From assembly GCA_964348935.1 (NCBI GenBank), contig CAYGEJ010000001.1, positions 51,807 to 115,806 on the forward strand: DNA of 64,000 bases, given 5' to 3'. The notes under the pieces were generated by a model, which did no database searches, was not told where the DNA came from, and worked only from the letters and a program-made list of their open reading frames with translations. Source of the DNA: an uncultured Candidatus Saccharibacteria bacterium (GTDB lineage: Bacteria; Patescibacteriota; Doudnabacteria; UBA920). The position numbers and the translations under genes are program-made. Positions 35-60,525 of this stretch are shown here, piece after piece. Position 1 is the stretch's first letter. Each line of letters begins with the position of its first letter.

Positions 35-826
35 ATGACTTGGACAGATGACCATGGACATACTCATATTATTAAAACAGAGTTTATTCCAGCAGAAAAA
101 AAATTCAAAGTTGTTGGTATGGATGATTATATAGCTTTAAGGGATTTTGCGTTAAATTATGCGTCTGCTAACGGATTGAATAAAGAACAAAGAGCTACGC
201 TTATTTCTGATATTGAAAAAAATAATACCCAAGGTACATATGGAGATCAAGCAACTGCCTTCAGACAATCACGCCCTGGGTTTAATCAGGCAAATTATAT
301 TAATGCAATGAAAGATCAGACAAAAATTGTAGAAAAAAATAACAACCTTAGTAAAAAAGGTGATATTGATCAAATTACTCAATGGTGGGAATCTTTAGTT
401 ACAAAAGATGCGACAGGTAATATAAGGTTGGGTAGTTCCGGAAAATATTTATTTACACATTGGAAATCTGGTCACGAATTTGCAGCTACACGTGGTAATT
501 TTGCCGACAAAGTACAAGCTCTAATGATGCCTATGGTGATAAATCACCCTGATATTTTAAAGGAGAATTTAAAAGATGCAATTCTTGAAAATTCTAGAGC
601 AGTAGGAAAACTTATGCCACCAGCAGTTTTGGCAAAAAAAGTCGCAGAAGCAGAGTACAAAACATTAAGAGTTGCATTTATGGCTGCGTTTAGAAATGAA
701 ACAGATTTAAAAAATACCATAAGAGAAGCTGGAGAGTTAGGCGATGGTAGTGAAGCGGATTATATACGTTTAAGTACAGCTCTAAGAACTAAATTAAATG
801 CTCCAGGTGTTTTAGATGAAGAATAA
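35..826 (+). CDS. hypothetical protein at the start of the T4SS-like locus
   Basis: Uninterrupted 263-aa ORF in the same orientation and closely spaced with the downstream VirB4-like genes. No motif I recognise. Confidence 0.4.
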   Translation: MTWTDDHGHTHIIKTEFIPAEKKFKVVGMDDYIALRDFALNYASANGLNKEQRATLISDIEKNNTQGTYGDQATAFRQSRPGFNQANYINAMKDQTKIVEKNNNLSKKGDIDQITQWWESLVTKDATGNIRLGSSGKYLFTHWKSGHEFAATRGNFADKVQALMMPMVINHPDILKENLKDAILENSRAVGKLMPPAVLAKKVAEAEYKTLRVAFMAAFRNETDLKNTIREAGELGDGSEADYIRLSTALRTKLNAPGVLDEE

Positions 827-842
827 TAAAACTTAATTTTTT

Positions 843-2129
843 ATGTTTTTAAGTATACAACAAGTTACAGAAATTATTAAACGATCTAAGTTTAAAAACG
901 ATTTTAAAGAACGACTTTTTTTGATTTTACCTAAACTTGAAAAATATACGTTAACAGGTCTTGGTTTAGAGGTGGATAAAAAAGATAGTCAACTTATTTC
1001 TGGTAAATTGGTTAAAACTTGGGAAGAATATGCTAAAATTATTAAAGAATTTGTAAATAATAATGAAACAGGTAAATCTTTTTTAGAGTTATTATCAGAA
1101 GCGAATGAGACCTTCAACGAAGAAAGAAAAATATTTTTTTTATATTTAGCAATGGATATAAAAAACCTTGTCGTTACTAATAAAGTAAATATTGAGGCTG
1201 AAATATATAATCAAATATTAGAATACGAAATAACTTTGTTTTGGAACTTGCCAAAAGAAGAAGTTTTATTTTTGTTAAAATTTAAAATTTTATTATTAGA
1301 AAGTAAATTTCAATTAGTTGAGAATATAAAGGTGGTAATCTGGTTTAATAGTTGGCACTACGAAAAAGATTTTAGCAAAATATTTACTTCATGCATTACG
1401 CAAAACTTCGAAGTTCTTGGAGGTATAAAAATAAGTAATTGGATTGAGAAGTATTTTAATTTTAGCACATCATCTACATTTAGAAATGATGTCATTCAGG
1501 TCGCTGAATTTTTAGTTAAAGACCCTAGTGTAAATATTTTAAAAGACAATGAAAGAAAAACTCTATCTGAAATACTCAAATTATATATATGGTTACTTAA
1601 GCCTGAAATAAATGAAGAGGAGATTTTGGCCTATAAAGAATTTATACGTCAGCAGAAAATGGATGAATTAAACGTCGGTATTGGAGATTTGGATGAAGAT
1701 GATATTGTGTACATTAACTCTCAACAATTTCAGTTGCCTGAGTTGGCGTTTGAGTCTCAGGTTGTTCCTCCGGTTGTTCCAGTACCCAATAAATCGGTAG
1801 TTGAAAAGCAGTCTAAGATTAAGCTGAATTTTGATGTAGATAAGACTGCAGTCGAATTAAATACCAAACCTGTTAAGATTGACGAAATTTTAAAGAAAAA
1901 AGAGGCTTTAATATCCCCGGGGTTGAGATTTCAGTCTAATGAAGACCAGCAAGCGACTCTTAAGTCCATACAAAGACCAAAAGAGATGTCGAAAGTGGAA
2001 GTGCCTGTTATTGCTCCGAAAAGTATAGATAGTTTTCAACCAAAAGCAGTAGAAATAGCTAAGCAAAACGATTTGGACATTGATAAAAAATTACAAGAGT
2101 TGGAAAAAAGGGTAAAGAATAAAAAATAA
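843..2129 (+). CDS. hypothetical protein
   Basis: 428-aa ORF starting 17 nt after the preceding gene. Acidic, Pro-rich C-terminal half. No recognisable domain. Confidence 0.4.
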   Translation: MFLSIQQVTEIIKRSKFKNDFKERLFLILPKLEKYTLTGLGLEVDKKDSQLISGKLVKTWEEYAKIIKEFVNNNETGKSFLELLSEANETFNEERKIFFLYLAMDIKNLVVTNKVNIEAEIYNQILEYEITLFWNLPKEEVLFLLKFKILLLESKFQLVENIKVVIWFNSWHYEKDFSKIFTSCITQNFEVLGGIKISNWIEKYFNFSTSSTFRNDVIQVAEFLVKDPSVNILKDNERKTLSEILKLYIWLLKPEINEEEILAYKEFIRQQKMDELNVGIGDLDEDDIVYINSQQFQLPELAFESQVVPPVVPVPNKSVVEKQSKIKLNFDVDKTAVELNTKPVKIDEILKKKEALISPGLRFQSNEDQQATLKSIQRPKEMSKVEVPVIAPKSIDSFQPKAVEIAKQNDLDIDKKLQELEKRVKNKK

Positions 2130-3349
2130 TGAATATTGCTCAACTTGAAAAATTAAAGGCACTTATTGCAAGTTCACCCATACTTAATGTTACGGAAAGA
2201 GCGGAATGGTTGGCGCTTTTGGAATTGATGAATGACAAGCAGTTAGGGGAGCTGGAAAAAATTTTATTAGAATATCAGCCAGCTAGTGAAGCTATAAATA
2301 AACCTGTCAGCTCTAAGTCTGTGACAGGTGCGCAAATTTTGCCAAAAAAAGCTGAGCCAAGCCAGCAGGTAAATGGTTTGGTAAATTCGTTAAGCGGTAA
2401 GTCTATAGGTGATTTGGCAGGCGATTTGGCGTTACATAAAGAACCAATTGCTAAATTGGCGCAAACTCAAAGTGCTTCCAAGTCGGCTCCGGTTATGCAA
2501 CTTCCTCATTTGAGTCATATTATGAACTTGCCTAATCATTGGGATGAGAAAAAATCTCAAACGCCTTTAGTTGCTAAGGAAAAGATTGATAAGACTGTTA
2601 AGGGCATTGGTAATAAGCAGAGTTTTGCGAGCAAGTTAAAGTCAATCTTTTTAGAAAAAGAACTGACAACCAGTAAGCCGGAATACCCTTTGGAATTAGC
2701 TGATCGTATGGAATTGGAGGCTCAACCCGTGGCAGTTGAAATTTCGCAAATCGAAACACAAAACAAACCAACTGTGCATTTGCCGGAAGTTGAAGTTAAA
2801 ACCAAAACCGAACCAATTGCAGTGGCTGTGCCGAAGCCAAAAGTTCCGTTGCCGAAGATATCGCTGAAACCTCAAATTATTCCTGAGAAGCCAGTTTGGA
2901 AGCCTATAAAGAAGCCTGATTTTTCACAAGGTAAATTTATTCCGGGAGTTGAATTTAAAGAGGATTCAATTGCTTCCCGTAATGACACACTTGCTAATGT
3001 TAAAAAACATTTGGAAGAAAAAGAAGACTTGCATGAGTCATTAAGACCGTTGAATACTAATGTAAATTTAAATGGTTTAGCAGATTTAAAAAATTTAACA
3101 ATAGATACTGTTGACTCTAGTGATTTAAGCAGTATGGTTAATAAAATTAGACAAATGATTTCGAAATACGGTTTTTTTGAAGTTATTTTCAATCTCGAAG
3201 ACAGTTGGGTTTATAAATCATATCTTGCTACCGGGGTAAAATTAATGTCAGAAAATACCCAGGGAGACGATAATTCACTAGAAAAGGTTATGAATAAATC
3301 GCAATTTGAAAAATTTGCAGATTTGTTGTCAAAAATTCAGTCAGCATAA
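2129..3349 (+). CDS. hypothetical Pro/Lys-rich protein
   Basis: 406-aa ORF whose start overlaps the stop of the previous gene (ATAATG). It has repetitive P-K-P-K stretches. Confidence 0.4.
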   Translation: MNIAQLEKLKALIASSPILNVTERAEWLALLELMNDKQLGELEKILLEYQPASEAINKPVSSKSVTGAQILPKKAEPSQQVNGLVNSLSGKSIGDLAGDLALHKEPIAKLAQTQSASKSAPVMQLPHLSHIMNLPNHWDEKKSQTPLVAKEKIDKTVKGIGNKQSFASKLKSIFLEKELTTSKPEYPLELADRMELEAQPVAVEISQIETQNKPTVHLPEVEVKTKTEPIAVAVPKPKVPLPKISLKPQIIPEKPVWKPIKKPDFSQGKFIPGVEFKEDSIASRNDTLANVKKHLEEKEDLHESLRPLNTNVNLNGLADLKNLTIDTVDSSDLSSMVNKIRQMISKYGFFEVIFNLEDSWVYKSYLATGVKLMSENTQGDDNSLEKVMNKSQFEKFADLLSKIQSA

Positions 3350-3388
3350 ATAAATTTTAAGATTTTTGTGTTATAATAAAAAGAGACT

Positions 3389-3835
3389 ATGCAATTTCCA
3401 GTCCCACAATTTACAGATGTTGAAGATCGAATAATTGGTCCTTTGACGATAAAGCAATTCGGTATTGTTTTTGTGGCAGGTGTTATAGTTTTTCTTGGAT
3501 ATTCGGCTACCAAAAGCATTCTCGTTTTAGTTTTTTTAATAGTATTATTTGGAGTTCCGGCTTTAGCCTTAGCTTTTCTGCCATTTAACGGCAGACCAGT
3601 TTATAACACTTTGGGGAATTTAATGAGATTTATGAATAGTCCAAAGGAATTAATTTTTCATAAAGAAGCCCAGAATTCAAATATAAAAATTGTAAAAGAT
3701 GCTGAAATAACTTCGGTGGCTGAGGTTCAAGCGGAAAATATAAACCCGGTAGATACTAAAGCTAATTTAAAAGAGGTACAAAAATTATTACGTGAGACAG
3801 CCTCAAAGCAAAGAGATGTAATTGGTAGAATGTAG
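3389..3835 (+). CDS. small two-TM membrane protein, possibly a PrgI/VirB3-like T4SS component
   Basis: 148 aa with two adjacent hydrophobic helices (FGIVFVAGVIVFLGY...LVLVFLIVLFGVPALALAFLPF). It sits directly upstream of the VirB4-like ATPase, which is the usual position of VirB3/PrgI-like proteins. Confidence 0.4.
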   Translation: MQFPVPQFTDVEDRIIGPLTIKQFGIVFVAGVIVFLGYSATKSILVLVFLIVLFGVPALALAFLPFNGRPVYNTLGNLMRFMNSPKELIFHKEAQNSNIKIVKDAEITSVAEVQAENINPVDTKANLKEVQKLLRETASKQRDVIGRM

Positions 3836-3889
3836 GACTAAGTTGCGAGTTGCTAATATTTAGTAACTAGCCACTAACAACTAGAGCTT

Positions 3890-4573
3890 ATGAAATTAGA
3901 CATGCAAAATAAAAATAAAACTACCACAAAAAGTACCCAGAGCTTTTTAAGAATATCTGAAATAAAAAATGACACAGTAGTAATGGATGACGGTACGCTA
4001 AGGGCAATAGTGGCTGTTTCAAGTACAAATTTTGATCTTAAAAGTCAAGATGAGCAAAATTCCATAATTTTTAATTTCCAAAGATTTTTGAATTCTTTAG
4101 ATTTTTCTATTCAGATTTTGATGCAAAGTCGAAAAATGGAAATTGGGGGCTATATGGAAAAGTTAAGGCGATTGGCTGAAAAACAGACAAATGAGTTGCT
4201 TCGCGTGCAAACTATTGAATATGTGGAGTTTATAAATAGACTTATTGAAAATGCGAGCATTATGAATAAGAATTTTTATATTATTGTCCCGTTGGGGACT
4301 TCCATATTACCGGTTGCATCTGGTTTTTTCTCGAACTTATTTGGTAATGGTAAAAATAAAGAGATTGCCCAAAAAATAGAGAATTTTGAAAGAGAAAAAG
4401 AAAAATTAGATACCCGAGTTTCCTCTTTATTATCTAACTTATCCGGTATAGGAATAAGGGGGGTTCCTTTAAAAACCGAAGAGATTATTCAATTGTATTA
4501 TAATTCTTATAATTTTGAAGCAGGTCCTCTAATAAACCCGTCGCAACTTAAAGATATTAAGATTAGTGAGTAG
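3890..4573 (+). CDS. VirB4/TrsE-like conjugal ATPase, N-terminal fragment (split gene)
   Basis: 227-aa ORF resembling the N-terminal domain of Gram-positive-type VirB4 (FLRISEIKNDTVVMDDGTLRAIVAVSSTNFDLKSQDEQNSIIFNFQRFLNSL..IQIL). It ends just before the four-helix-bundle gene. The downstream ORF continues with the next conserved VirB4 segment. Confidence 0.55.
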   Translation: MKLDMQNKNKTTTKSTQSFLRISEIKNDTVVMDDGTLRAIVAVSSTNFDLKSQDEQNSIIFNFQRFLNSLDFSIQILMQSRKMEIGGYMEKLRRLAEKQTNELLRVQTIEYVEFINRLIENASIMNKNFYIIVPLGTSILPVASGFFSNLFGNGKNKEIAQKIENFEREKEKLDTRVSSLLSNLSGIGIRGVPLKTEEIIQLYYNSYNFEAGPLINPSQLKDIKISE

Positions 4574-4587
4574 TTACTAGGTGCTAG

Positions 4588-5007
4588 GTGCAAGTGACTA
4601 GTATCAAACAAGCAGATATTAAGTATTTAATGAGTAATTCTATTATGTCGATATCTCATTATAAAGAATTAATAGTTTGGCAAAAATCTATGAATTTAGT
4701 AGATCTAATATATATAATAACTAGACAATTTCCAAAGTCGGAAACTTATGCATTAGCAAGTCAGATGCAAAGGTCAGCAATTTCTATACCTTCTAATATT
4801 GCAGAAGGGCAAGGTAGAAATCATAAAGCAGAATTTGTACACTTTTTAGGTATATCTTTTGGTTCCTCTGCCGAATTAGAAACACAAATTTTAATAGCTA
4901 AAAAACAGTATCCGCTATTAAATTATAATAAAGCTGAGGATTTATTAGTAGAAGTACAAAAAATGTTATCAGTTTTAATTAATCGTTTACTAGTCACTAA
5001 CAACTAG
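4588..5007 (+). CDS. four helix bundle protein (23S rRNA intervening-sequence protein family)
   Basis: 139 aa with the family signature (ELIVWQKSMNLVDLIYIITRQFPKSETYALASQMQRSAISIPSNIAEGQGR...FLGISFGSSAELETQILIA), as I recall this family. Located between the two VirB4 fragments. Confidence 0.8.
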   Translation: MQVTSIKQADIKYLMSNSIMSISHYKELIVWQKSMNLVDLIYIITRQFPKSETYALASQMQRSAISIPSNIAEGQGRNHKAEFVHFLGISFGSSAELETQILIAKKQYPLLNYNKAEDLLVEVQKMLSVLINRLLVTNN

Positions 5008-5024
5008 AAACTAGCAACTAACTC

Positions 5025-6872
5025 ATGGCTATATTTGGCACAATTGATGAGCAGGAATTAAAAGAGAAGCGAGAAGCTTTGAACGAAGCTGAGAAAGAAA
5101 GAGATTTAAGCTCTAGTCTTGGAGATTTGGAAAAAACCTACAAGGAAGGTTTGACTACTCTAAAAGACCTTATTGCTCCTGCTTCGCTTAAATTTAATAG
5201 TTCTAACTTTGAACTTAACGGTAAGTTTGGTCGTAGTTTTTTTGTGCTGGCATATCCGCGATTTCTTTCTACCAATTGGTTGTCTTTTATTATTCAAGCC
5301 GAAGGTGCATTGGATTTGTCCATGTTTATATATCCGATTGAGTCTGCGGATATCTTAAAAAAATTGAAGTCAAAAGTCGGGGAATTGGGATCCCAAATGT
5401 CCATAAATCAATCTAAGGGAATGGTTCGCGACCCAATGCTGGAAACGGCGTATAAGGATGTTGAAGGTTTGCGTGATAACTTAATGCAGGGTACGGAAAA
5501 GTATTTTCGATTTGCTTTGTATTTTACAATTTATGCAAATGACCTAAAAGAGTTAGACAAATTTTCTTCAACGTTGGAAAGTTCTTTGGGGTCAAAATTA
5601 GTGGTTACTAAACGAGCTTTATTGCAAACTCAAAATGGGTTGAATTCCACTTTGCCTTTAGGTTTAGATGAACTGGATGTTGCTAGTAATATGAATACCA
5701 GCCCACTTTCTAGCTGCTTCCCCTTTGTTTCCTCGGACTTGAGTAGTAATGACGGAGTTCTTTATGGTATAAATAGGCATAACAATAGTCTAATCCTATT
5801 TGACCGCTTTGCAATGGAAAATGCTAATTCAGTAGTATTTGCCAAATCCGGTGCTGGGAAGTCTTACGCGGTAAAATTAGAGGTTTTGAGGGCCTTAATG
5901 GTGGGGACGGAAGTAATTATTGTTGACCCGGAAAATGAATATCAGCATTTAGCGTCTGCTGTGGGCGGTACTTATTTAAGCGTTTCTTTAAATTCACCTT
6001 CCAGAATTAACCCGTTTGATTTACCGGTAGCTATTGAAGGAGAAGATAATACCGATGTACTTAGAAGTTCGGTTATTAATTTACTTGGATTGTTTAGTTT
6101 AATGCTTGGAAAATTAAACCCGACTGAAGAAGCATTAATGGATAAAGCTATTTGGCAGACTTATGCGAAAAAAGATATTACTCCTCAGCTTGCAGATTTT
6201 CGTGGAGTGGAATATCCGACGATGAATGATTTGGTGGAGATTCTAAATGGTATGGTTGGGGCGGAAAGTTTGGCTCAGAGAATGACAAAATATACGGAAG
6301 GGACTTTTGCCGGGTTGTTAAACCAGCAGACCAATGTCGTTTTAAATAATCAGCTGGTAGTGTTTTCTATTCGCGACCTGGAAGAGGAGTTGCGACCTAT
6401 TTCTATGTACATTATTTTGAATTATATTTGGAATATTGTTCGATCAGAACTTAAAAAGCGTATACTTGTTGTGGATGAAGCTTGGATTTTAATGCAGCAT
6501 GAAGATAGTGCGCGTTTCTTGTTTGGTATAGCCAAGCGTGCTCGAAAATATTATTTAGGATTAACCACAATAACTCAAGATGTCGCAGATTTTTTAGCCT
6601 CGCCTTACGGTAAGCCAATTGTGACAAACTCCTCTATACAGCTTTTACTTAAGCAAAGCCCCGCAGCTATTAATGTAATTGCAGAAACTTTTTTTCTTAC
6701 AGAAGGTGAAAAATATTTGCTTTTGGAAAGCGAAGTTGGAGAAGGGATTTTCTTTGCAGGTTTAAAACACGCGGCGATTAAGATTTATGCGTCTTATGTT
6801 GAAGACCAGATTATTACCACGGATCCAAAACAGTTGTTGGAAATTCAGGATAGCCAGGATAAACTTGGTTAA
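5025..6872 (+). CDS. virB4: VirB4/TrbE/TraC-like type IV secretion ATPase (C-terminal ATPase part)
   Basis: Walker A FAKSGAGKSYAV, Walker B ILVVDEAWIL and the conserved VirB4 N-proximal segment (GKFGRSFFVLAYPRFLSTNWLSFII...DLSMFIYPIE). 615 aa. Confidence 0.8.
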   Translation: MAIFGTIDEQELKEKREALNEAEKERDLSSSLGDLEKTYKEGLTTLKDLIAPASLKFNSSNFELNGKFGRSFFVLAYPRFLSTNWLSFIIQAEGALDLSMFIYPIESADILKKLKSKVGELGSQMSINQSKGMVRDPMLETAYKDVEGLRDNLMQGTEKYFRFALYFTIYANDLKELDKFSSTLESSLGSKLVVTKRALLQTQNGLNSTLPLGLDELDVASNMNTSPLSSCFPFVSSDLSSNDGVLYGINRHNNSLILFDRFAMENANSVVFAKSGAGKSYAVKLEVLRALMVGTEVIIVDPENEYQHLASAVGGTYLSVSLNSPSRINPFDLPVAIEGEDNTDVLRSSVINLLGLFSLMLGKLNPTEEALMDKAIWQTYAKKDITPQLADFRGVEYPTMNDLVEILNGMVGAESLAQRMTKYTEGTFAGLLNQQTNVVLNNQLVVFSIRDLEEELRPISMYIILNYIWNIVRSELKKRILVVDEAWILMQHEDSARFLFGIAKRARKYYLGLTTITQDVADFLASPYGKPIVTNSSIQLLLKQSPAAINVIAETFFLTEGEKYLLLESEVGEGIFFAGLKHAAIKIYASYVEDQIITTDPKQLLEIQDSQDKLG

Positions 6873-6958
6873 ATATTTTACAGAAACTATAACCATAACA
6901 ATAACGCGAAATAGGTAGCTGTTATAGTTGTGGTTATTATTTATAGGTAGGATTTTTT

Positions 6959-9454
6959 ATGGCAGATGACCTGGTAGATGAATTAAATACTGACAGCTCT
7001 AGTTCTCCGACGGCACAAGATGTGGACGCTTTGTCAAGCGAACAGGTGTCTTCTAATACGGTTAAAGTTAGAGAGCTTTTTAAAACCGGGAATACTGACA
7101 GAATTATTTATGATATTTCCACAGATGGTAAACCAAAACGTACTTCCGGCTGGAGAATTCATGACAATAGCCAGGTAGAAATTTCAGGAAGCGGACTTGG
7201 AGTTTATGATCAGGTTGTTTTGTGGATAAGTGGTAGTCCTTTTTATCATAAAAATTTAGGAGGTCGTGAACAAGGGCGGTTGTTAACTTTTCAGGTTGAA
7301 GATTTAAGTAATTTGTACAGTGAAGGTACTCCGGTTGAAATTCAATTTGTTGATTCTAAAAATCCGGAAAATAGTAGATTTTTACAGCAGAAATTTACTT
7401 ATGTACAAGCAAAAACCGATGAAGAACAAGCGAAAAAAAGTCCGGAAGATGTAGAGAACGCAAGATTAGAACGACAAAAAGAGGATGCAAAAATAAATGG
7501 CCCAATGTCTGTGATGATGGACGGTATGGGGCAAGCTATTGGAGGTGTTGGTGGTGTACTACCCAGCAGTGCCAATAAAGATATTAGACCAAAAGGAAAT
7601 ATAGAAAATAATCAAGCAGTTCCTGCTAAGAGTAGTCTTTCTCAGAATGTGGAAGAAGGTGATTCTATAGATACTGAAGAGAATTTAAGTGTAGATGGTG
7701 AGGTTGTAAATTCATCTACCAATGTATCGGATGATAGAGTTCCGATTAGTGAAATGGGAACTGTGAAAAAATCTGATATTTCCCAGGATTCTTCCACTAC
7801 GGTTACAGAGAGTAGTACTCAAAAAACTTCAGGGAATTTGGAATCATCCAGAACAGTAAAAGGTGGGGGTAAGTTAAATGGGGCTGGGTCAGTGAATGCG
7901 ACAGATGACGGAGCTGTGAGCTTGGGTGTTAAATCTCAAGTTTTGGAGACAGGAAATGATGGGGTGGTAGAAAAAGAACCAACACCACCAAATGCTATTG
8001 TGTCAGGTAAAGCTGAAAGTTCGACTCAAGAAAAACTTGATGTATTCGGAACAAGTCAAGTTTCGGAACAAGAACAAGCAAATTTTTCGGCTAATGGAAA
8101 CATTGGAACCTCTAAACAAAAAAAAGCTTCAGAGTTAAAGTCAAAAACTCAAACAGGAATAAGTTCTAGTACTAAGGGGCGAGTACAGGCTTCAGCTTCG
8201 AACCAGCAATTGAATACAGATGATTCAAGACCACAGGCAAGCACTATGTCTAGTGCTAATGCCACTGCACAAGCAAAGCCTTTAAAACCTCCTGCTGGAC
8301 TAGGAGCGATGAAGTCGCTTGAAATAAATTTAAACAAGACTTTGGGTGTGCCTCTAGGAGTTGGAAGTGCTCCCGGAGTATTAAATAAGCCTAGTGAAAT
8401 TACTAAAAGTAGTAATCAGCCTGAAACCAAGAATCAACCTACGACAGAATTGGAAGGTGAAACTATAAATCTTCAGGGGGTTGAAAGTGGACAGGGTTTA
8501 GAGGTTGGTGGTTTAGCCGAACCAGTAGTTCCTCATGAAGGTCAAGAAAAAAAACCGGATGTTGGTTTGGTCTTGAGTAAATCCGACAGAGCTGGTAGCG
8601 AGCCATTTAGACCAAAAACTGGAGTGGAGTCAAGAGGGAAGTCATTTGGTTCAGAAAGGCCTATTGGCGATTTAAACAGACGAACTGAGCCGGATGTTAT
8701 ATTAAATAAAAAGCTCAAGAATAATGAAGATTTGTCATTTGGTGAAAGGAGTTTGGGAATGTCGGCAAGACCGGCAGGTCCAGATGTTGCAGGTGGCGCT
8801 TCTGTCGGTGCGGAAACACAAGATCCGGTAGAGAGTGGAAAAAAGGATGGTGGTGAAACTCAGGATAGCGAGGAGGAGGCAGAAGAGGAAAATCTGGGTT
8901 TACAGCCAGTTATACCGGAAGAGGTAATGCCTGATCCAAGTACAAGCAAGGCGGACGCCTCGAAAGAGGATGTTGCTGACAAGGCTTTAAGTGTTATAGC
9001 AGATAGTAAAGCTGGAAAAGAATTGGTAGGTCAGGCCGTAAGTGAATTTTGGTGGTGGGGATTTGGTATTTCATCCGCTTCATTATTTATTGGTTTGGAT
9101 TTTTTAGCCGGTGCGGTAATAATGAATGTTTATTGGTGGAGACATAGAAAACAGCCAGAGCTTTTACCTATGAAAGGCTGGCAAAAAGTTGTTACAGTTT
9201 TTGCCAGTGTATTTCCTTTTTTTGTTATAACCTTTTTATTGGGATTATTTATGATAGTAGGATGTAATTATCCAATTCTTGGTAAGTATTCAAAATTAGT
9301 GAGTTATAAAACAACAGTCGTGGGAGCATTTATAGGGGAAGATTGTAAATATTTTGATATTACAAGTAGTTCCGAGCTAGATGGCACAGAGAATAACACA
9401 AATCCCCAAAATTTAACCCCTAATCCTTTAAATCCAAGGGGAGTGTCACCTTAG
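6959..9454 (+). CDS. large low-complexity (Ser/Thr/Gly-rich) protein with a C-terminal multi-TM anchor
   Basis: 831-aa ORF. Long disordered S/T/G/E-rich region, then hydrophobic helices near the C-terminus (FWWWGFGISSASLFIGLDFLAGAVIMNVYWW ... VFPFFVITFLLGLFMIVG). Immediately downstream of VirB4, so it may be a T4SS-associated surface or channel protein. Confidence 0.5.
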   Translation: MADDLVDELNTDSSSSPTAQDVDALSSEQVSSNTVKVRELFKTGNTDRIIYDISTDGKPKRTSGWRIHDNSQVEISGSGLGVYDQVVLWISGSPFYHKNLGGREQGRLLTFQVEDLSNLYSEGTPVEIQFVDSKNPENSRFLQQKFTYVQAKTDEEQAKKSPEDVENARLERQKEDAKINGPMSVMMDGMGQAIGGVGGVLPSSANKDIRPKGNIENNQAVPAKSSLSQNVEEGDSIDTEENLSVDGEVVNSSTNVSDDRVPISEMGTVKKSDISQDSSTTVTESSTQKTSGNLESSRTVKGGGKLNGAGSVNATDDGAVSLGVKSQVLETGNDGVVEKEPTPPNAIVSGKAESSTQEKLDVFGTSQVSEQEQANFSANGNIGTSKQKKASELKSKTQTGISSSTKGRVQASASNQQLNTDDSRPQASTMSSANATAQAKPLKPPAGLGAMKSLEINLNKTLGVPLGVGSAPGVLNKPSEITKSSNQPETKNQPTTELEGETINLQGVESGQGLEVGGLAEPVVPHEGQEKKPDVGLVLSKSDRAGSEPFRPKTGVESRGKSFGSERPIGDLNRRTEPDVILNKKLKNNEDLSFGERSLGMSARPAGPDVAGGASVGAETQDPVESGKKDGGETQDSEEEAEEENLGLQPVIPEEVMPDPSTSKADASKEDVADKALSVIADSKAGKELVGQAVSEFWWWGFGISSASLFIGLDFLAGAVIMNVYWWRHRKQPELLPMKGWQKVVTVFASVFPFFVITFLLGLFMIVGCNYPILGKYSKLVSYKTTVVGAFIGEDCKYFDITSSSELDGTENNTNPQNLTPNPLNPRGVSP

Positions 9455-9549
9455 TAAAAAATTAAATTTGGAGTTTTTACAAAACAGTGATATAATAAAT
9501 AAAAGATGTATTTATTCGACACCAAAATAAACAGATTTAATTTATAAAT

Positions 9550-10704
9550 ATGAATAAAAAAGCTATTGCTATATTAGGCGCTATTTTTTTGCTGATCGTT
9601 GGTACACTAGGATTTTTAATATATTCCAAATATTCAGTAAAAGATAACACCACTACTACAAATTCTAGCACTACTACACCGGATAGCGGAATTATTGGGG
9701 ATCCTGTTGAAAATCCGGACACTATAATTCCGGAGACTCCAACAGACTCTGTTGTTAAATTAACAGAATCGGAAGTAGTATCACCGGCTTTATTTTTTGA
9801 CGGTAGCGGAATAACTTATTTTGATATTCAGGGTAATTTGTTTCAGTCAGTAATACAAAATGATAATGGTAAAGTTTCCTTAACTGGTAAAAAGCAGTTG
9901 GATATTCCTCAAAAGCAAAATATTACCAAAGTCCTTTGGCCAGCCAAAGGTAGTGATTTTATTGTCGAGTTTAAAGGTTCAACTGGGAAGAGATTGTTTA
10001 GTTATTTTAACAGTGTTACTCAGCTTTATACTGATTTGCCAGAACAGGTATATAGCCTTGATTGGATGCCTAATGGCAATCAGATTATGTACACCTGGTT
10101 GGAAAACAATAAATCTACTTTGAATTTGAGTGATGGTGATACAAAAAATTGGAAATATTTGGCTGATATGTGGGAAAATGATGACGCTTTAGCAATTTCT
10201 CCAGACGGTACTCAGTTGATTTATTACGAAACAGAAAATACCGGAACCAGTAATCCTATTAATTCTGTGACCAGTGACGGTAAGATTTGGAAGACTTTGG
10301 TGAAAACTGGACAAAATATTGGCGCGCTTTGGAGTCCGGACGGACAAAAGTTTTTATTTGCCAAAAAAGATTTAACTTCATTAAAGTATCAGTTGTGGGT
10401 TTATAATTTAACCTCCGAAGAAGTTAAAAATTTAGGATTTTTTTCTACCCCTGAAAAAGCAGTGTGGGATAAAGATAGTAATGTAGTTTATGTTAGTGTG
10501 CCAAGTTTAAATACTTCTTCTAACGAGGTATTGACCCAAGATTCGTTCTTCAGAATGGATACTACCACTCTTGAGAAGAAAGAATATACTTCTTCAAGTA
10601 TGACCTTGGACGGTAGGAATTTGTTTTTAAATTCAACCAGTGATAAGTTATTTTTTAAAAATGCACAAGATGGTGCTTTATATTATCTTGATTTGACGAA
10701 GTAG
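9550..10704 (+). CDS. TolB-like / PD40 beta-propeller repeat protein with an N-terminal TM anchor
   Basis: N-terminal helix AIAILGAIFLLIVGTLGFLIY. Repeated motifs typical of PD40/WD40-like propellers (LDWMPNGNQIMYTW, ISPDGTQLIYYE, WSPDGQKFLFAKKD). Confidence 0.55.
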   Translation: MNKKAIAILGAIFLLIVGTLGFLIYSKYSVKDNTTTTNSSTTTPDSGIIGDPVENPDTIIPETPTDSVVKLTESEVVSPALFFDGSGITYFDIQGNLFQSVIQNDNGKVSLTGKKQLDIPQKQNITKVLWPAKGSDFIVEFKGSTGKRLFSYFNSVTQLYTDLPEQVYSLDWMPNGNQIMYTWLENNKSTLNLSDGDTKNWKYLADMWENDDALAISPDGTQLIYYETENTGTSNPINSVTSDGKIWKTLVKTGQNIGALWSPDGQKFLFAKKDLTSLKYQLWVYNLTSEEVKNLGFFSTPEKAVWDKDSNVVYVSVPSLNTSSNEVLTQDSFFRMDTTTLEKKEYTSSSMTLDGRNLFLNSTSDKLFFKNAQDGALYYLDLTK

Positions 10705-10792
10705 ATTATTAGTAATCAATTGACAGAATTTATCAAAATTGACAGAATTACTTAAGAGTTCTGTCAATTTTTTAATTTTTTGGTGAGTATAT

Positions 10793-12124
10793 ATGGTTAA
10801 ATCTCAATTAGTATTTATATGTAGTAACTGTCAATTTAAAGCCACCCGTTGGCAGGGGAAGTGCCCAGAATGTGGGCAGTGGAATTCTTTTGAAGAACAA
10901 AGGGTTACTATAACTGGAAAAAAAGGGTTCACAGGAATTGCTTCAAAATCTGTTGAGTTATCTGGGGTTGAGTTGTTAAATCATGCAAGAGTAAAAACCG
11001 GAATAGGAGAGTTTGATGAGGTCATTGGTTCAGGAATTGTGCCTGGAAGCTTAATATTGCTCGGTGGTGACCCGGGAATTGGAAAATCTACACTTGCCCT
11101 ACAACTTTCCATGCAAGTAAAAGCGGACGTGTTGTACGTCTCAGGAGAAGAATCGGTTAACCAAATTAAACTTCGAGCGAATAGATTGAATAAAAATCAT
11201 CAGTTGAATGTTTTGGCTGAAACCGATTTGCAAAGCGTACTTGCGAATGTAGATAGTCAAAAACCTGAATTGGTAATTATAGACTCAATTCAAACTATGT
11301 ATAGTGAAGAGGCGAGTGGTGTGGCTGGGGGAGTTGCTCAAGTGACTTTTGCTGTTCAGCAAATTATGCGTATGGCAAAACAAAACCATATTTCTTTTAT
11401 TGTAATTGGGCACGTAACAAAAGAAGGCTACTTAGCTGGCCCAAAAACTTTGGAACATATGGTAGACACAGTTTTGTATTTAGAAGGTGAGCGCTTTGCT
11501 TCTTTTAGAATTTTACGTTGTGTTAAAAACCGCTTTGGTACCACCAACGAAGTTGGAGTGTTTGAAATGCAAGGTGAAGGTTTGGTGGAAGTTAAAAATC
11601 CTTCCCAATTATTTTTAGGTGAAGATAGTATAAAAGCTTCTGGAAATGTTATAACTGCAGTCCAAGAGGGAAGCCGGGCATTGCTTTTAGAAATTCAAGC
11701 GCTTACCTCAATTAGTAATTTTGGTTACCCTAAAAGAACTACCGCTGGTTTTGATTCTAACCGTTTACAGTTGTTAACCGCTATTCTTGCTAAGCGCGCG
11801 GGACTTAACCTTTCTAACCAGGATATTTATATTAATGTAGTAGGTGGAATAAAAATAGAAGAGCCAACCGCAGACTTGGCCGTGGCTTTGGCTATTTATT
11901 CTAGTCTTAAAGATATTATTATTAGTGATACTGTAGTTATAGGTGAGCTTGGGCTTTCTGGTGAGGTTAGGTATGTTTCTAATTTAGAAAAAAGAATAAA
12001 AGAAGCAAGTAAGCTTGGGTTTAAAAAAGTAATTTGTCCAAAAAATAAACTGACCTTAAAAATTCCGGGAGTGGAAATTGTAGGTGTAAAAACTTTAAGC
12101 GAAGCTATTAAAAATATTTCATAA
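10793..12124 (+). CDS. radA: DNA repair protein RadA/Sms
   Basis: N-terminal C4 zinc finger (CSNCQFKATRWQGKCPECGQW), Walker A GGDPGIGKSTL, KNRFG motif and a Lon-like C-terminal domain. 443 aa. Confidence 0.9.
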   Translation: MVKSQLVFICSNCQFKATRWQGKCPECGQWNSFEEQRVTITGKKGFTGIASKSVELSGVELLNHARVKTGIGEFDEVIGSGIVPGSLILLGGDPGIGKSTLALQLSMQVKADVLYVSGEESVNQIKLRANRLNKNHQLNVLAETDLQSVLANVDSQKPELVIIDSIQTMYSEEASGVAGGVAQVTFAVQQIMRMAKQNHISFIVIGHVTKEGYLAGPKTLEHMVDTVLYLEGERFASFRILRCVKNRFGTTNEVGVFEMQGEGLVEVKNPSQLFLGEDSIKASGNVITAVQEGSRALLLEIQALTSISNFGYPKRTTAGFDSNRLQLLTAILAKRAGLNLSNQDIYINVVGGIKIEEPTADLAVALAIYSSLKDIIISDTVVIGELGLSGEVRYVSNLEKRIKEASKLGFKKVICPKNKLTLKIPGVEIVGVKTLSEAIKNIS

Positions 12125-55726: not shown

Positions 55727-55791
55727 ACGACTGGACAACTTTAACGCATTTTATACTACCCTCTAATCCCTAATCGCTATTCACTAACTAC

Positions 55792-56271
55792 ATGATTTCA
55801 ATAATTGCTGCTGTAGCGGAAAATAATGTTATAGGTATAAACAACACTCTTCCGTGGAATATCCCAGAAGATTTAAAACATTTTCAGGAAGTTACCAAAG
55901 GTAAAATTGTTTTAATGGGCAATAAAACATTTGAGTCTATTGTTTCTATTTTGGGTAAGCCACTGCCAAACAGAAAAAATGTTGTGGTAACATTAAATAA
56001 ATCCTATACTGTGCCAGCTGGAGTGGAGTTGGAGTTTGATTTATTTAATGCTTTAGAAAAATATAAAAATGAAGATTTATTTGTAATTGGCGGGGCGCAA
56101 ATTTGGAAATTGGCTTTGCCATTTGTAGACCAGTTGTATATAACTCACGTACATAAAAATTATGAAGGCGATGCTTTTTTCCCAGAAGTTAACTGGCAAG
56201 AATGGGAAAAAGTAGAAGAAGAAAAGCATTCAGAGTTTACATTTGCTAAATACATAAAAAAATCCCCATAA
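55792..56271 (+). CDS. folA: dihydrofolate reductase
   Basis: MISIIAAVAENNVIGINNTLPWNIPEDLKHFQEVTKGKIVLMG is the canonical DHFR N-terminus. 159 aa. Stop codon lies in the loop of a CCCCA-UAAU-UGGGG hairpin. Confidence 0.85.
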   Translation: MISIIAAVAENNVIGINNTLPWNIPEDLKHFQEVTKGKIVLMGNKTFESIVSILGKPLPNRKNVVVTLNKSYTVPAGVELEFDLFNALEKYKNEDLFVIGGAQIWKLALPFVDQLYITHVHKNYEGDAFFPEVNWQEWEKVEEEKHSEFTFAKYIKKSP

Positions 56272-57399: not shown

Positions 57400-58494
57400 T
57401 TGAACGAATTAGCAAAAAAATTAGAACTACTTAAATCTGAAATTTTAAATCTTAAATCTCACTTAAATTTACCCCAAAAAGAGCAAAGAATTTTAGAGCT
57501 CGAAAGTGCTATGCAAGAAGGGGATTTTTGGGCAGATAATTTAAATGCACAAAAAGTTAGTCAAGAGTATAAAAATTTAAAAACATTTTACGATTTTTGG
57601 AAAGGTCTTGAAGATAAAACGCTTGAGCTTTTAGAATTGGTTAAAAATAATACTGACGAGTCGGATGAAACAAAAAGCTATTTAGTTGAGCAGTTTGAAG
57701 TTTTAGAAGAGCAATACAAGAAAAATCGCTTTGTTGCACTGCTTTCTAAAAAATATGACGATCATAATGCAATTTTTTCTATTCACTCAGGTGCGGGTGG
57801 GGTAGATGCGCAAGATTGGGCAGATATGCTCCTACGAATGTTTTTAAGATATTGCGAGAAAAAAGGTTTTAGCACAGAAGTATTGGAATTAAGCAAAGGT
57901 GAACAGGGTGGAGTAAAAACCGCAGTGGTGGAAGTTCATGGGGCATACGCGTATGGACTTTTAAAAAGTGAAGCTGGAGTTCATAGGTTGGTGCGTTTGT
58001 CTCCTTTCAACCCAGCACACACTAGAGAGACTTCATTTGCTTTAATGGAATTATTACCACTCTTAGAAGAAAAAGAAGAACTTACAATAGACCCGAAGGA
58101 CTTAAAAATAGAAGCCAATACTGCAAGTGGTCACGGTGGGCAAAGCGTTAATACTACATATTCTGCAATTCGTATAACTCATATTCCAACTGGACTTAAA
58201 GTTAGCATTCAAAATGAACGTAGCCAACACCAAAACCGCGAAATGGCTATGAAAATTTTAATGGCTAGACTTAAAATTTTAGAAGAAGAAAAACTACAAA
58301 AGGAAAAGCAAGAATTACGCGGAGAATTTAAGAGTGCGGAATGGGGTAATCAAATTCGCTCTTACGTGGTACATCCTTATAAAATGGTAAAAGATCATCG
58401 CACTAATTTTGAAACTAGTGATCCAGATTCAGTATTAAATGGCGAACTTGATGAATTTGTGGAAAGTTATTTGGAAAAAATAGCTTCAAGCTAG
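57400..58494 (+). CDS. prfB: peptide chain release factor 2
   Basis: SPF tripeptide (RLSPFNPAH) and GGQ (SGHGGQSVNTT). 364 aa in one frame from a TTG start. No programmed +1 frameshift site is evident. Confidence 0.85.
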   Translation: MNELAKKLELLKSEILNLKSHLNLPQKEQRILELESAMQEGDFWADNLNAQKVSQEYKNLKTFYDFWKGLEDKTLELLELVKNNTDESDETKSYLVEQFEVLEEQYKKNRFVALLSKKYDDHNAIFSIHSGAGGVDAQDWADMLLRMFLRYCEKKGFSTEVLELSKGEQGGVKTAVVEVHGAYAYGLLKSEAGVHRLVRLSPFNPAHTRETSFALMELLPLLEEKEELTIDPKDLKIEANTASGHGGQSVNTTYSAIRITHIPTGLKVSIQNERSQHQNREMAMKILMARLKILEEEKLQKEKQELRGEFKSAEWGNQIRSYVVHPYKMVKDHRTNFETSDPDSVLNGELDEFVESYLEKIASS

Positions 58495-59273: not shown

Positions 59274-59322
59274 GTAGGTTAAAGGTCTTGCACCTAGAAC
59301 CTTGCACCCTAGAACCTAAATT

Positions 59323-60240: not shown

Positions 60241-60525
60241 CTTAGTTAAGCTAAATTTAAGAATATCTTAATAAGCACTTGATAAAATTAAATAAACTAG
60301 TATACTAACAAAGAGCCCAAGTTAGCTTTTAGGTGTTAGTGGGTAGGTGTTAGAAAAAACATTTACATTCCACTGCAATCGGTGACTCTCTTAATAGGAG
60401 AGTTTTTTTATTTTTTGATAACTAAAATTTATTTTTTACGAATAATAGCGAATGATAACTAATGCTATTGTTTAGGATTAGTTATCATTCGTTGTGTATA
60501 AACTTATTTTTAATTAGTGAATGTT

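Follow-up and report, generated by a model that had tools for sequence, protein, structure and literature searches.

In a 64,000-nucleotide (nt) stretch of DNA from an uncultured Candidatus Saccharibacteria bacterium of the Doudnabacteria lineage (contig CAYGEJ010000001.1, positions 51,807 to 115,806; hereafter the window), the VirB4-like ATPase of a type IV secretion system (T4SS) is encoded in two open reading frames (ORFs), ORF227 and ORF615, named after their lengths in amino acids (aa), and a gene for a four-helix-bundle (4HB) protein is located between them. Such a division of VirB4 into two genes is usual in this phylum. The object of interest is the element in the spacer, a cassette in which arms of tandem heptamers enclose a single small gene, and the class of elements to which it points. 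The cassette resembles the intervening sequences (IVSs) of bacterial rRNA genes and is probably an IVS-like selfish element residing in the spacer between two T4SS genes that were already separate.

Anatomy of the cassette

The cassette (4571-5022, about 450 nt) consists of a left heptamer arm, the 4HB ORF in the orientation of the operon, and a right, complementary heptamer arm. A repeat search identifies the arms (4571-4603 and 4988-5020) as a 33-nt imperfect inverted repeat with 82% complementarity, and the minimum-energy fold closes them into a stem (z score -3.35). Tandem Repeats Finder (TRF) assigns a period of 7 to both arms (2.1 copies of CTAGGTG on the left, 3.9 copies of ACTAACA on the right), and the autocorrelation at lag 7 is 0.69 and 0.71, respectively. 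The left arm overlaps the TAG stop codon of ORF227 and holds the heptamer CTAGGTG twice (4577-4591); the right arm encodes the last 7 codons of the 4HB ORF and ends 2-4 nt short of the ATG of ORF615. ORF227, the 4HB gene, and ORF615 occupy three different frames, and the gap between the two VirB4 ORFs (4574-5024) is 451 nt long, as given in the initial annotation. The 4HB ORF ends at 5007 and could start at GTG 4588 or ATG 4630, besides the start at 4645. The whole arrangement is base-for-base identical in an independent sample (L155; loci from other genomes are denoted by L and a number) and is therefore not an assembly artefact.

The 4HB protein belongs to the family classically encoded within intervening sequences, as had been recognized from the sequence: it matches PF05635 with 120.1 bits (cut-off 33.8; model positions 1-105 of 106) and TIGR02436 with 116.5 bits (cut-off 24), and shows sequence similarity to PDB entries 2gsc (E = 2.3e-20) and 2rld. 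The database protein P0271 is 100% identical to it over 120 aa. No second 4HB gene was found in the window, neither the 4HB protein nor ORF227 has a match in PADLOC, and a scan of the cassette for promoters and terminators yielded no excess over shuffles. At the gathering thresholds, Rfam detects two tRNAs only in the whole window, and no rRNA; in the region 3700-5200, nothing relevant and no intron model is found at E values up to 1.

The initial annotation drew attention to eight CTAG tetramers in three clusters and to two near-identical 21-mers, ACTAGCCACTAACAACTAGAG (3866-3886) and ACTAGTCACTAACAACTAGAA (4989-5009), and all of these are present. CTAG is indeed depleted in the window, with 105 occurrences against 137 expected under a Markov model or 206 from mononucleotide composition. 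Of the eight tetramers (3867, 3881, 4577, 4584, 4598, 4990, 5004, and 5011), the three in each inverted arm are spaced in mirror fashion, by 7 and 14 nt in the left arm and by 14 and 7 nt in the right one, because CTAG is its own reverse complement. The element is built of a family of heptamer units (NNCTAGN / CACTAAC), and this composition accounts for both the abundance of CTAG and the seeming direct repetition of the 21-mer. Repeat flanks exist, but they are not direct repeats that bound the element: its arms are inverted, and the upstream 21-mer is part of a separate hairpin.

This miniature hairpin (3836-3889, 54 nt) fills the spacer upstream of ORF227, folds with -14.9 kcal/mol (z of about -1.8 to -2.4), and has a 7-nt autocorrelation of 0.56. 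Its left part matches the left arm of a related 4HB element, L150, at 10 of 10 positions, and its right part matches the right arm of L150 at 22 of 26 positions and the right arm of the window cassette at 19 of 20; these scores were reached by 0-3 of 500 shuffles. The hairpin is orthologous in the close relatives L156 and L157. The hairpin is a miniature version of the same element, devoid of an ORF, and its right arm is the upstream 21-mer. Even with up to 3 mismatches allowed, the window contains no match to the 21-mer beyond the two copies, and 100 shuffles give an expectation of 0.

VirB4 is normally encoded in two genes

ORF615 matches the CD1110 VirB4-like model NF045971 with 358.5 bits (cut-off 325) at positions 176-728 of 752, as well as PF19044 (E = 1.3e-28) and PDB 4ag5, the VirB4 C-terminal domain (E = 7.8e-46), and carries a C-terminal P-loop ATPase domain of the VirB4 type. 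It also matches the PADLOC model 'mad8' (E = 1.6e-24), presumably a reflection of the shared ATPase fold and not of a defence role. ORF227 gives weak matches to the N-termini of three VirB4 models and falls on positions 5-135 of the CD1110 model, colinear with ORF615. Its match to NF041427 (TrsD/TraD; E = 7.4e-6, 25.9 bits) is far under the family cut-off of 200 bits, and the PF26593 'TraC-like' domain is precomputed for its homologues. The 14 best PDB fold matches of an AlphaFold (AF2) model of ORF227 (pLDDT 83) are all TrwK/VirB4 (TrwK of R388), with weak scores (E of about 0.01, TM 0.3-0.5). Two fused proteins, P0258 (797 aa, Colwellbacteria) and P0249 (898 aa), contain both parts colinearly, ORF227 first and ORF615 next; in P0258, residues 7-208 align with ORF227 residues 15-208, and residues 226-796 with ORF615 residues 42-612. 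On the strength of these alignments, ORF227 and ORF615 together correspond colinearly to a full-length VirB4-like ATPase, and the assignment of ORF227 to the VirB4 N-terminal domain (N-domain) in the initial annotation holds.

Homologues of ORF227 are almost all 200-440 aa long. The best 120 of the 1,636 homologues span 222-286 aa, and 148 of the 150 best representatives at 50% identity are shorter than 450 aa, the other two being the fused proteins. The comparison covered 60 loci at the species level, drawn from Doudnabacteria, Paceibacterota, Nealsonbacteria, Saccharimonadales, and other groups. The N-domain gene closes with a stop codon in all 60, and an unsplit virB4 is found in none. In 26 of these loci, the spacer between the N-domain and ATPase genes is compact (40 nt or less) or the genes overlap, where the lengths of compact spacers derive from extrapolated gene starts and take negative values in distant loci; spacers down to 1-35 nt exist. 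Most of the stand-alone N-domain relatives have no 4HB gene nearby, and the nearest relative that lacks it (L003, 87% identity) has both genes, separated by a 115-nt spacer. Given the two-gene state in relatives without the 4HB gene, this gene did not split VirB4. Two genes normally encode VirB4 in this phylum, and the fission is old and has no relation to the 4HB gene. This corrects the picture for T4SS biology: in Patescibacteria, the two-gene VirB4 is a long-standing and stable organization rather than the result of damage by a mobile element.

Two relatives show unusual ATPase genes. In a distant Patescibacteria relative (L059:4900-6900), an in-frame insertion of about 650 codons lies within the Walker A motif of the VirB4-like ATPase (junctions GKSGGGK / SVLSFEP...MFVHN / SYAVKLEV), with LAGLIDADG-like blocks IIGFITSEGTV and LSAYFEGDGEV. 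Judged by eye, the insertion looks like an intein with a homing endonuclease, in which case a mobile element would interrupt VirB4 by way of protein splicing rather than gene fission. In L015 (4195-7521), the ATPase gene begins 7 nt past the N-domain stop codon and carries an N-terminal extension of about 490 aa that is rich in Pro, Glu, and Ala and looks disordered; the 1,483-nt 'spacer' of this locus was considered as a cassette and rejected, being this disordered extension.

Turnover of cassettes in orthologous T4SS loci

Two spacers were compared across the orthologous loci, the one between the PrgI and N-domain genes and the one between the N-domain and ATPase genes. A spacer is either compact, or a mid-sized hairpin without an ORF, or a cassette of 425-590 nt. 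The mid-sized hairpins have a median fold z of -2.9, and many are plain heptamer palindromes. By length, 25 spacers are cassette-sized, and 21 of these could be assigned to a cargo family (4HB in 10, PDDEXK_3/GxxExxY in 10, and GIY-YIG in one). In all 21 cassettes, the cargo gene is on the operon strand, and long imperfect inverted arms abut the neighbouring stop and start codons; the duplex z ranges from -2.4 to -11.5, with a single exception of -0.8. As a control, the flanks of 65 window genes were scored in the same way; their median z is 0.09, and a value below -3 was obtained for the 4HB gene alone.

The cargo of these spacers turns over fast between close relatives. In L157, whose ORF227 orthologue shares at least 90% identity, the spacer that holds the 4HB cassette in the window is taken up by a PDDEXK_3 cassette, and the arms of the latter (CTACAGA) are different. 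Conversely, the arms of L007 and L013 are near-identical, whereas their cargo genes are unrelated (GIY-YIG and PDDEXK_3, respectively). The cargo is frameshifted or reduced to remnants in L008, L027, L030, and L034, and empty heptamer hairpins are common.

The frameshifted cargo can be followed in L001:6709-7115 (equivalent to L008:4209-4618), where a PDDEXK_3/GxxExxY gene in the spacer of the N-domain and ATPase genes is broken into ORFs of 73 and 87 aa. The ATPase gene of the L001 contig is likewise called in two pieces (331 and 283 aa), and this could reflect either decay or a sequencing error.

Related cassettes in other operons and other bacteria

The closest relatives of the 4HB gene (71-76% identity) occupy the spacer of dnaK and a peptidase gene, the eno-gpmI spacer, and a site after galT, and they carry arms that are homologous to those of the window cassette; the right arm of L150, for example, has AACTAGAAACTAGCAACTA in common with the right arm in the window. 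Among 36 metagenomic relatives of the 4HB gene, the median duplex z is -4.2, and the lag-7 autocorrelation is 0.50 compared to 0.25 inside the ORF; an example is the element (TAGTGGC)5-ORF-(CTAGCCA)4. The same organization is seen in plasmids of cyanobacteria, namely, (GGGAGTA)n-4HB-(CCCTACT)n in pNe_5 of Nostoc edaphicum and (AGGAGTC)n-4HB-(CTGACTC)n in pNPUN02 of N. punctiforme. Thus, the arm-ORF-arm design is general over many genomes, and the arms travel together with the cargo to unrelated operons.

The heptamer-armed 4HB gene of pNe_5 is located between two genes for ribonucleotide reductase subunits, antisense to both. In plasmid pANA02 of Anabaena sp. 90 (L159, 44265-44633), a 4HB gene with long inverted flanks is embedded in a type I-D CRISPR-Cas operon; it separates cas6 from cas4 and shares their orientation.

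A tentative but real possibility is that the cassette belongs to a widespread and apparently undescribed mobile class of 'IVS-like' elements, in which inverted heptamer arrays surround one small, exchangeable ORF (4HB, PDDEXK_3/GxxExxY, or GIY-YIG) and which would settle both in rRNA helices and in the stop-to-start spacers within operons, in bacteria of the candidate phyla radiation (CPR), cyanobacteria, and others, and decay to hairpins devoid of ORFs. If so, one type of element would explain the ORF-bearing rRNA IVSs, the scattered 'four helix bundle protein' genes, and the intergenic heptamers of Xanthomonas and cyanobacteria. The nature of rRNA IVSs and the reason why they carry the S23p ORF have been in question for more than 30 years, and so have the abundant intergenic heptamers of bacteria. 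An arm-ORF-arm module in mRNA spacers, with cargo and location that turn over between near-identical strains, makes the IVS question testable. In the literature that we could cover, which was incomplete so that prior work is possible, no paper was found that ties 4HB genes to heptamer arrays in mRNA spacers, or that joins IVSs, CPR rRNA insertions, and intergenic heptamers.

Proposed origin of the cassette and alternative explanations

The cassette occupies a once tiny stop-to-start spacer between the N-domain and ATPase genes. Because no promoter or terminator signal was detected and the orientation is uniform, we infer that the cassette lacks a dedicated promoter and depends on read-through transcription of the operon. 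In the transcript, the arms could form a stem of about 33 bp that RNase III might cut, by analogy with rRNA IVSs; such a cut would set the 4HB mRNA free and uncouple the N-domain cistron from that of the ATPase. Spread would occur at the DNA level, either of the arm-ORF-arm unit or by entry of the ORF into pre-existing hairpins of matching heptamers, possibly through recombination or homing via the repetitive arms, with nuclease cargo (PDDEXK_3, GIY-YIG) helping. The cassette would then decay to ORF-less hairpins, such as the one at 3836-3889.

Several observations weigh against this scenario. The nearest relative of the 4HB gene outside the strain is 76% identical and the 64 kb hold a single copy, so recent transposition in this genome is not demonstrated. 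There are 6 mismatches among the 33 positions of the stem. In a test of sense-strand G:U against A:C mismatches on 47 + 32 arm pairs, sense-strand G:U showed no excess over antisense G:U (64 vs 57; 38 vs 47), and there is therefore no signature of selection on RNA structure; the complementarity of the arms looks symmetric and may be maintained at the level of DNA. No transposase or recombinase was found among the proteins scanned in or beside the cassette, target-site duplications not having been searched for, and the 4HB protein is not known to have an enzymatic activity or to be a nuclease.

The initial annotation suggested that the insertion had converted VirB4 into a two-piece protein, that is, that the 4HB element or an intron-like insertion cut an intact virB4 into two ORFs. 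In favour of this view, fused VirB4-like proteins align colinearly with ORF227 and ORF615, and precisely between these two ORFs there is a cassette of mobile appearance, but the two-gene state extends to all 60 species and to the best 120 of the 1,636 homologues, with or without a cassette, spacers as short as 1-35 nt occur, and the cassette sits between complete stop and start codons, which leaves this origin scarcely credible. A degenerate intron or a split without an intein, considered in the same annotation, fares no better, since Rfam offers no intron match, and a group I or group II intron or an intein was rejected because, in addition, the flanking ORFs are in different frames with stop and start codons of their own. 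What stands is a mobile-like, repeat-flanked insertion between the ORFs. That the 21-mer is a common promoter, ribosome-binding, or translation-initiation signal ahead of both VirB4 parts, as had also been proposed, draws on the location of the two copies, whose ends are 3 and 15 nt away from the downstream ATG codons, where no Shine-Dalgarno sequence is visible. However, the corresponding upstream sequences of relatives either show no resemblance or are all but missing, while both genes are kept intact, so the 21-mer is not a conserved signal; each copy is half of a stem, and the promoter scan does not rise above shuffles. We regard this explanation as very unlikely.

It is less far-fetched, but still unlikely, that the hairpin, and perhaps the 4HB protein too, has been domesticated for regulation of the T4SS operon, for instance, as an element for RNase III processing or for stability by which the proportion of N-domain protein to ATPase would be set. 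The frequency of hairpins in exactly these spacers in the Doudnabacteria clade, the operon orientation of every cargo gene, and the arms that abut stop and start codons are all compatible with such a role. Against it, the sequence, length, and cargo of the spacer vary even where the flanking proteins are at least 90% identical, the spacers of 26 of the 60 relatives are compact, homologous cassettes reside in unrelated housekeeping operons, and the cargo is decaying at several loci. We give almost no credence to the view that the 4HB gene was left behind by a diversity-generating retroelement, as an Avd-like accessory protein, or belongs to a defence system: the similarity to bAvd is weak (PF22296, 33.7 bits; NF033474, E = 8.8e-6) and remains under the curated cut-offs (40 bits for PF22296; 26 bits against 80 for NF033474), no reverse transcriptase domain is present among the neighbouring proteins scanned (35-10704), PADLOC gives no match, and the match to the IVS-protein family is stronger. 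The IVS-like selfish cassette accordingly remains the explanation that we favour.

Gene row and other features of the window

The T4SS-like gene row of the window, PrgI/VirB3, VirB4 N-domain protein, and VirB4 ATPase, in this order, is conserved (Table 1). Almost all related loci retain the PrgI gene upstream of the N-domain gene, and TrbL-like genes are found upstream in L001 and L003, so that the VirB4-like genes are associated with VirB3/PrgI and VirB6/TrbL genes. The spacer downstream of ORF615 holds another hairpin, with a 22-nt inverted repeat of 82% complementarity (spacer fold z -3.8).

Table 1 The cassette and its surroundings in the window (positions within the 64,000 nt)
Feature	Position	Strand	Basis
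PrgI / VirB3-like gene (148 aa), first of three conserved T4SS-like genes	3389..3835	+	PF12666 PrgI, E = 3.6e-11
Miniature hairpin without an ORF, spanning the PrgI-to-ORF227 spacer; upstream 21-mer (3866-3886) as right arm	3836..3889	+	
ORF227, stand-alone VirB4 N-terminal-domain protein, 227 aa, PF26593 'TraC-like'	3890..4573	+	
Left arm of the cassette	4571..4603	+	Inverted-repeat search, TRF, autocorrelation, homology to L150/L151 left arms
4HB protein gene, 23S_rRNA_IVP / TIGR02436, 120 aa as called in databases	4645..5007	+	
Right arm of the cassette, tandem heptamer array that includes the second 21-mer	4988..5022	+	Repeat search, TRF, autocorrelation
ORF615, VirB4-like ATPase body with P-loop domain, 615 aa	5025..6872	+	
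Next intergenic ORF-less hairpin, of a similar general kind; arms 6884-6905 and 6921-6942	6884..6942	+	

Other repeats and hairpins occur elsewhere in the window. At 59287-59318, a solo intergenic array of CTTGCACC(C)TAGAAC x2, with no partner arm or ORF, closely resembles the right arm that the 4HB element of L151 has in the eno-gpmI spacer; the array may be what is left of another cassette, to judge from its appearance. A 285-nt spacer that folds with a z of -6.3 contains the 21-mer-like ACTAGTATACTAAC followed by 4.7 copies of GTTAGGT-type heptamers (60290-60355), and a second strong hairpin (ACGAATAATAGCGAATGATAACTAAT..., 60440-60500). Directly upstream of the ATG at 55792, there is a run of G-poor heptamers (CTCTAAT CCCTAAT CGCTATT CACTAAC, 55727-55791) that has no complementary arm nearby and has CACTAAC in common with the 21-mer. 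An intergenic hairpin of AATTGACAG 9-mers (10705-10792) precedes a 443-aa ORF at 10793, and similar units of the AATTGACA type make up hairpins that lack an ORF in the T4SS spacers of both L003 and L032; by their sequences, some hairpin repeat families seem to be common to several genomes. A period-7 array at 57430-57459 was rejected as an intergenic arm; it lies inside the likely 5' coding end of the ORF that ends at 58494, as judged by eye from a reading that starts at a TTG near 57400.

Comparison with known systems

In conjugation systems of Gram-positive bacteria (pSK41, pIP501), a small TrsD/TraD gene is located just upstream of the TrsE/TraE ATPase gene. The gene pair in the window is similar in that the ATPase gene is directly preceded by a gene whose small product is related to the VirB4 N-terminus and weakly matches NF041427.

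The coexistence of ORF-less hairpins and ORF-bearing copies, along with a cycle of gain, decay, and loss, is reminiscent of MITEs (miniature transposable elements with inverted repeats), REPINs, and free-standing homing endonuclease genes, and the nuclease-family cargo of the sister cassettes is a further likeness. As a difference, the arms are tandem heptamers of variable sequence with no conserved terminal motif, and no transposase or RAYT was found (again leaving aside target-site duplications, which were not searched for).

Intergenic heptamers have been described in Xanthomonas (GGGAATC), in Nostoc (GGGGAYT), and as heptanucleotide repeats of cyanobacteria (Rehm et al. 2015, PMC4692102); they vary in copy number, are located between ORFs of like orientation, and frequently form convergent inverted pairs, and their function was left open. 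The cassette likewise has tandem 7-nt units between co-oriented ORFs, and 4HB genes on Nostoc plasmids are flanked by such arrays. That study, in which the terms 'S23' and 'four helix' do not occur, reads the repeats as G-quadruplex formers, whereas the units in the window are A/T-rich and contain CTAG.

The 16S and 23S rRNA genes of CPR bacteria contain insertions that are not introns and code for proteins of the 23S_rRNA_IVP or GIY-YIG families (Tsurumaki et al. 2024, PMC11270868). These insertions come from the same phylum, carry the same cargo families, and, like the cassette, are not intron-like; the parts of that report available to us do not describe flanking heptamer arms or an occurrence in mRNA spacers.

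The closest parallel is with the ORF-bearing IVSs of 23S rRNA genes in Leptospira and Coxiella. The 23S IVS of Coxiella burnetii (428-444 nt) has a 28-bp terminal stem, a sense S23p (4HB) ORF, and tandem GACAGAT heptamers upstream of the ORF, is excised by RNase III through cuts in the stem, and is viewed by the authors as a selfish element of unknown mobility (PMC4990558). The cassette in the window differs in its location between two protein-coding genes of an operon instead of an rRNA helix, in that its excision by RNase III is a prediction by analogy, and in that the loop ORF of sister loci may encode a PDDEXK_3 or GIY-YIG protein. With the rRNA IVSs it shares a length of about 430-450 nt, a long terminal stem of about 28-33 bp, a single sense S23p/4HB ORF in the loop, tandem heptamers in an arm, a sporadic distribution, and an ORF prone to decay.

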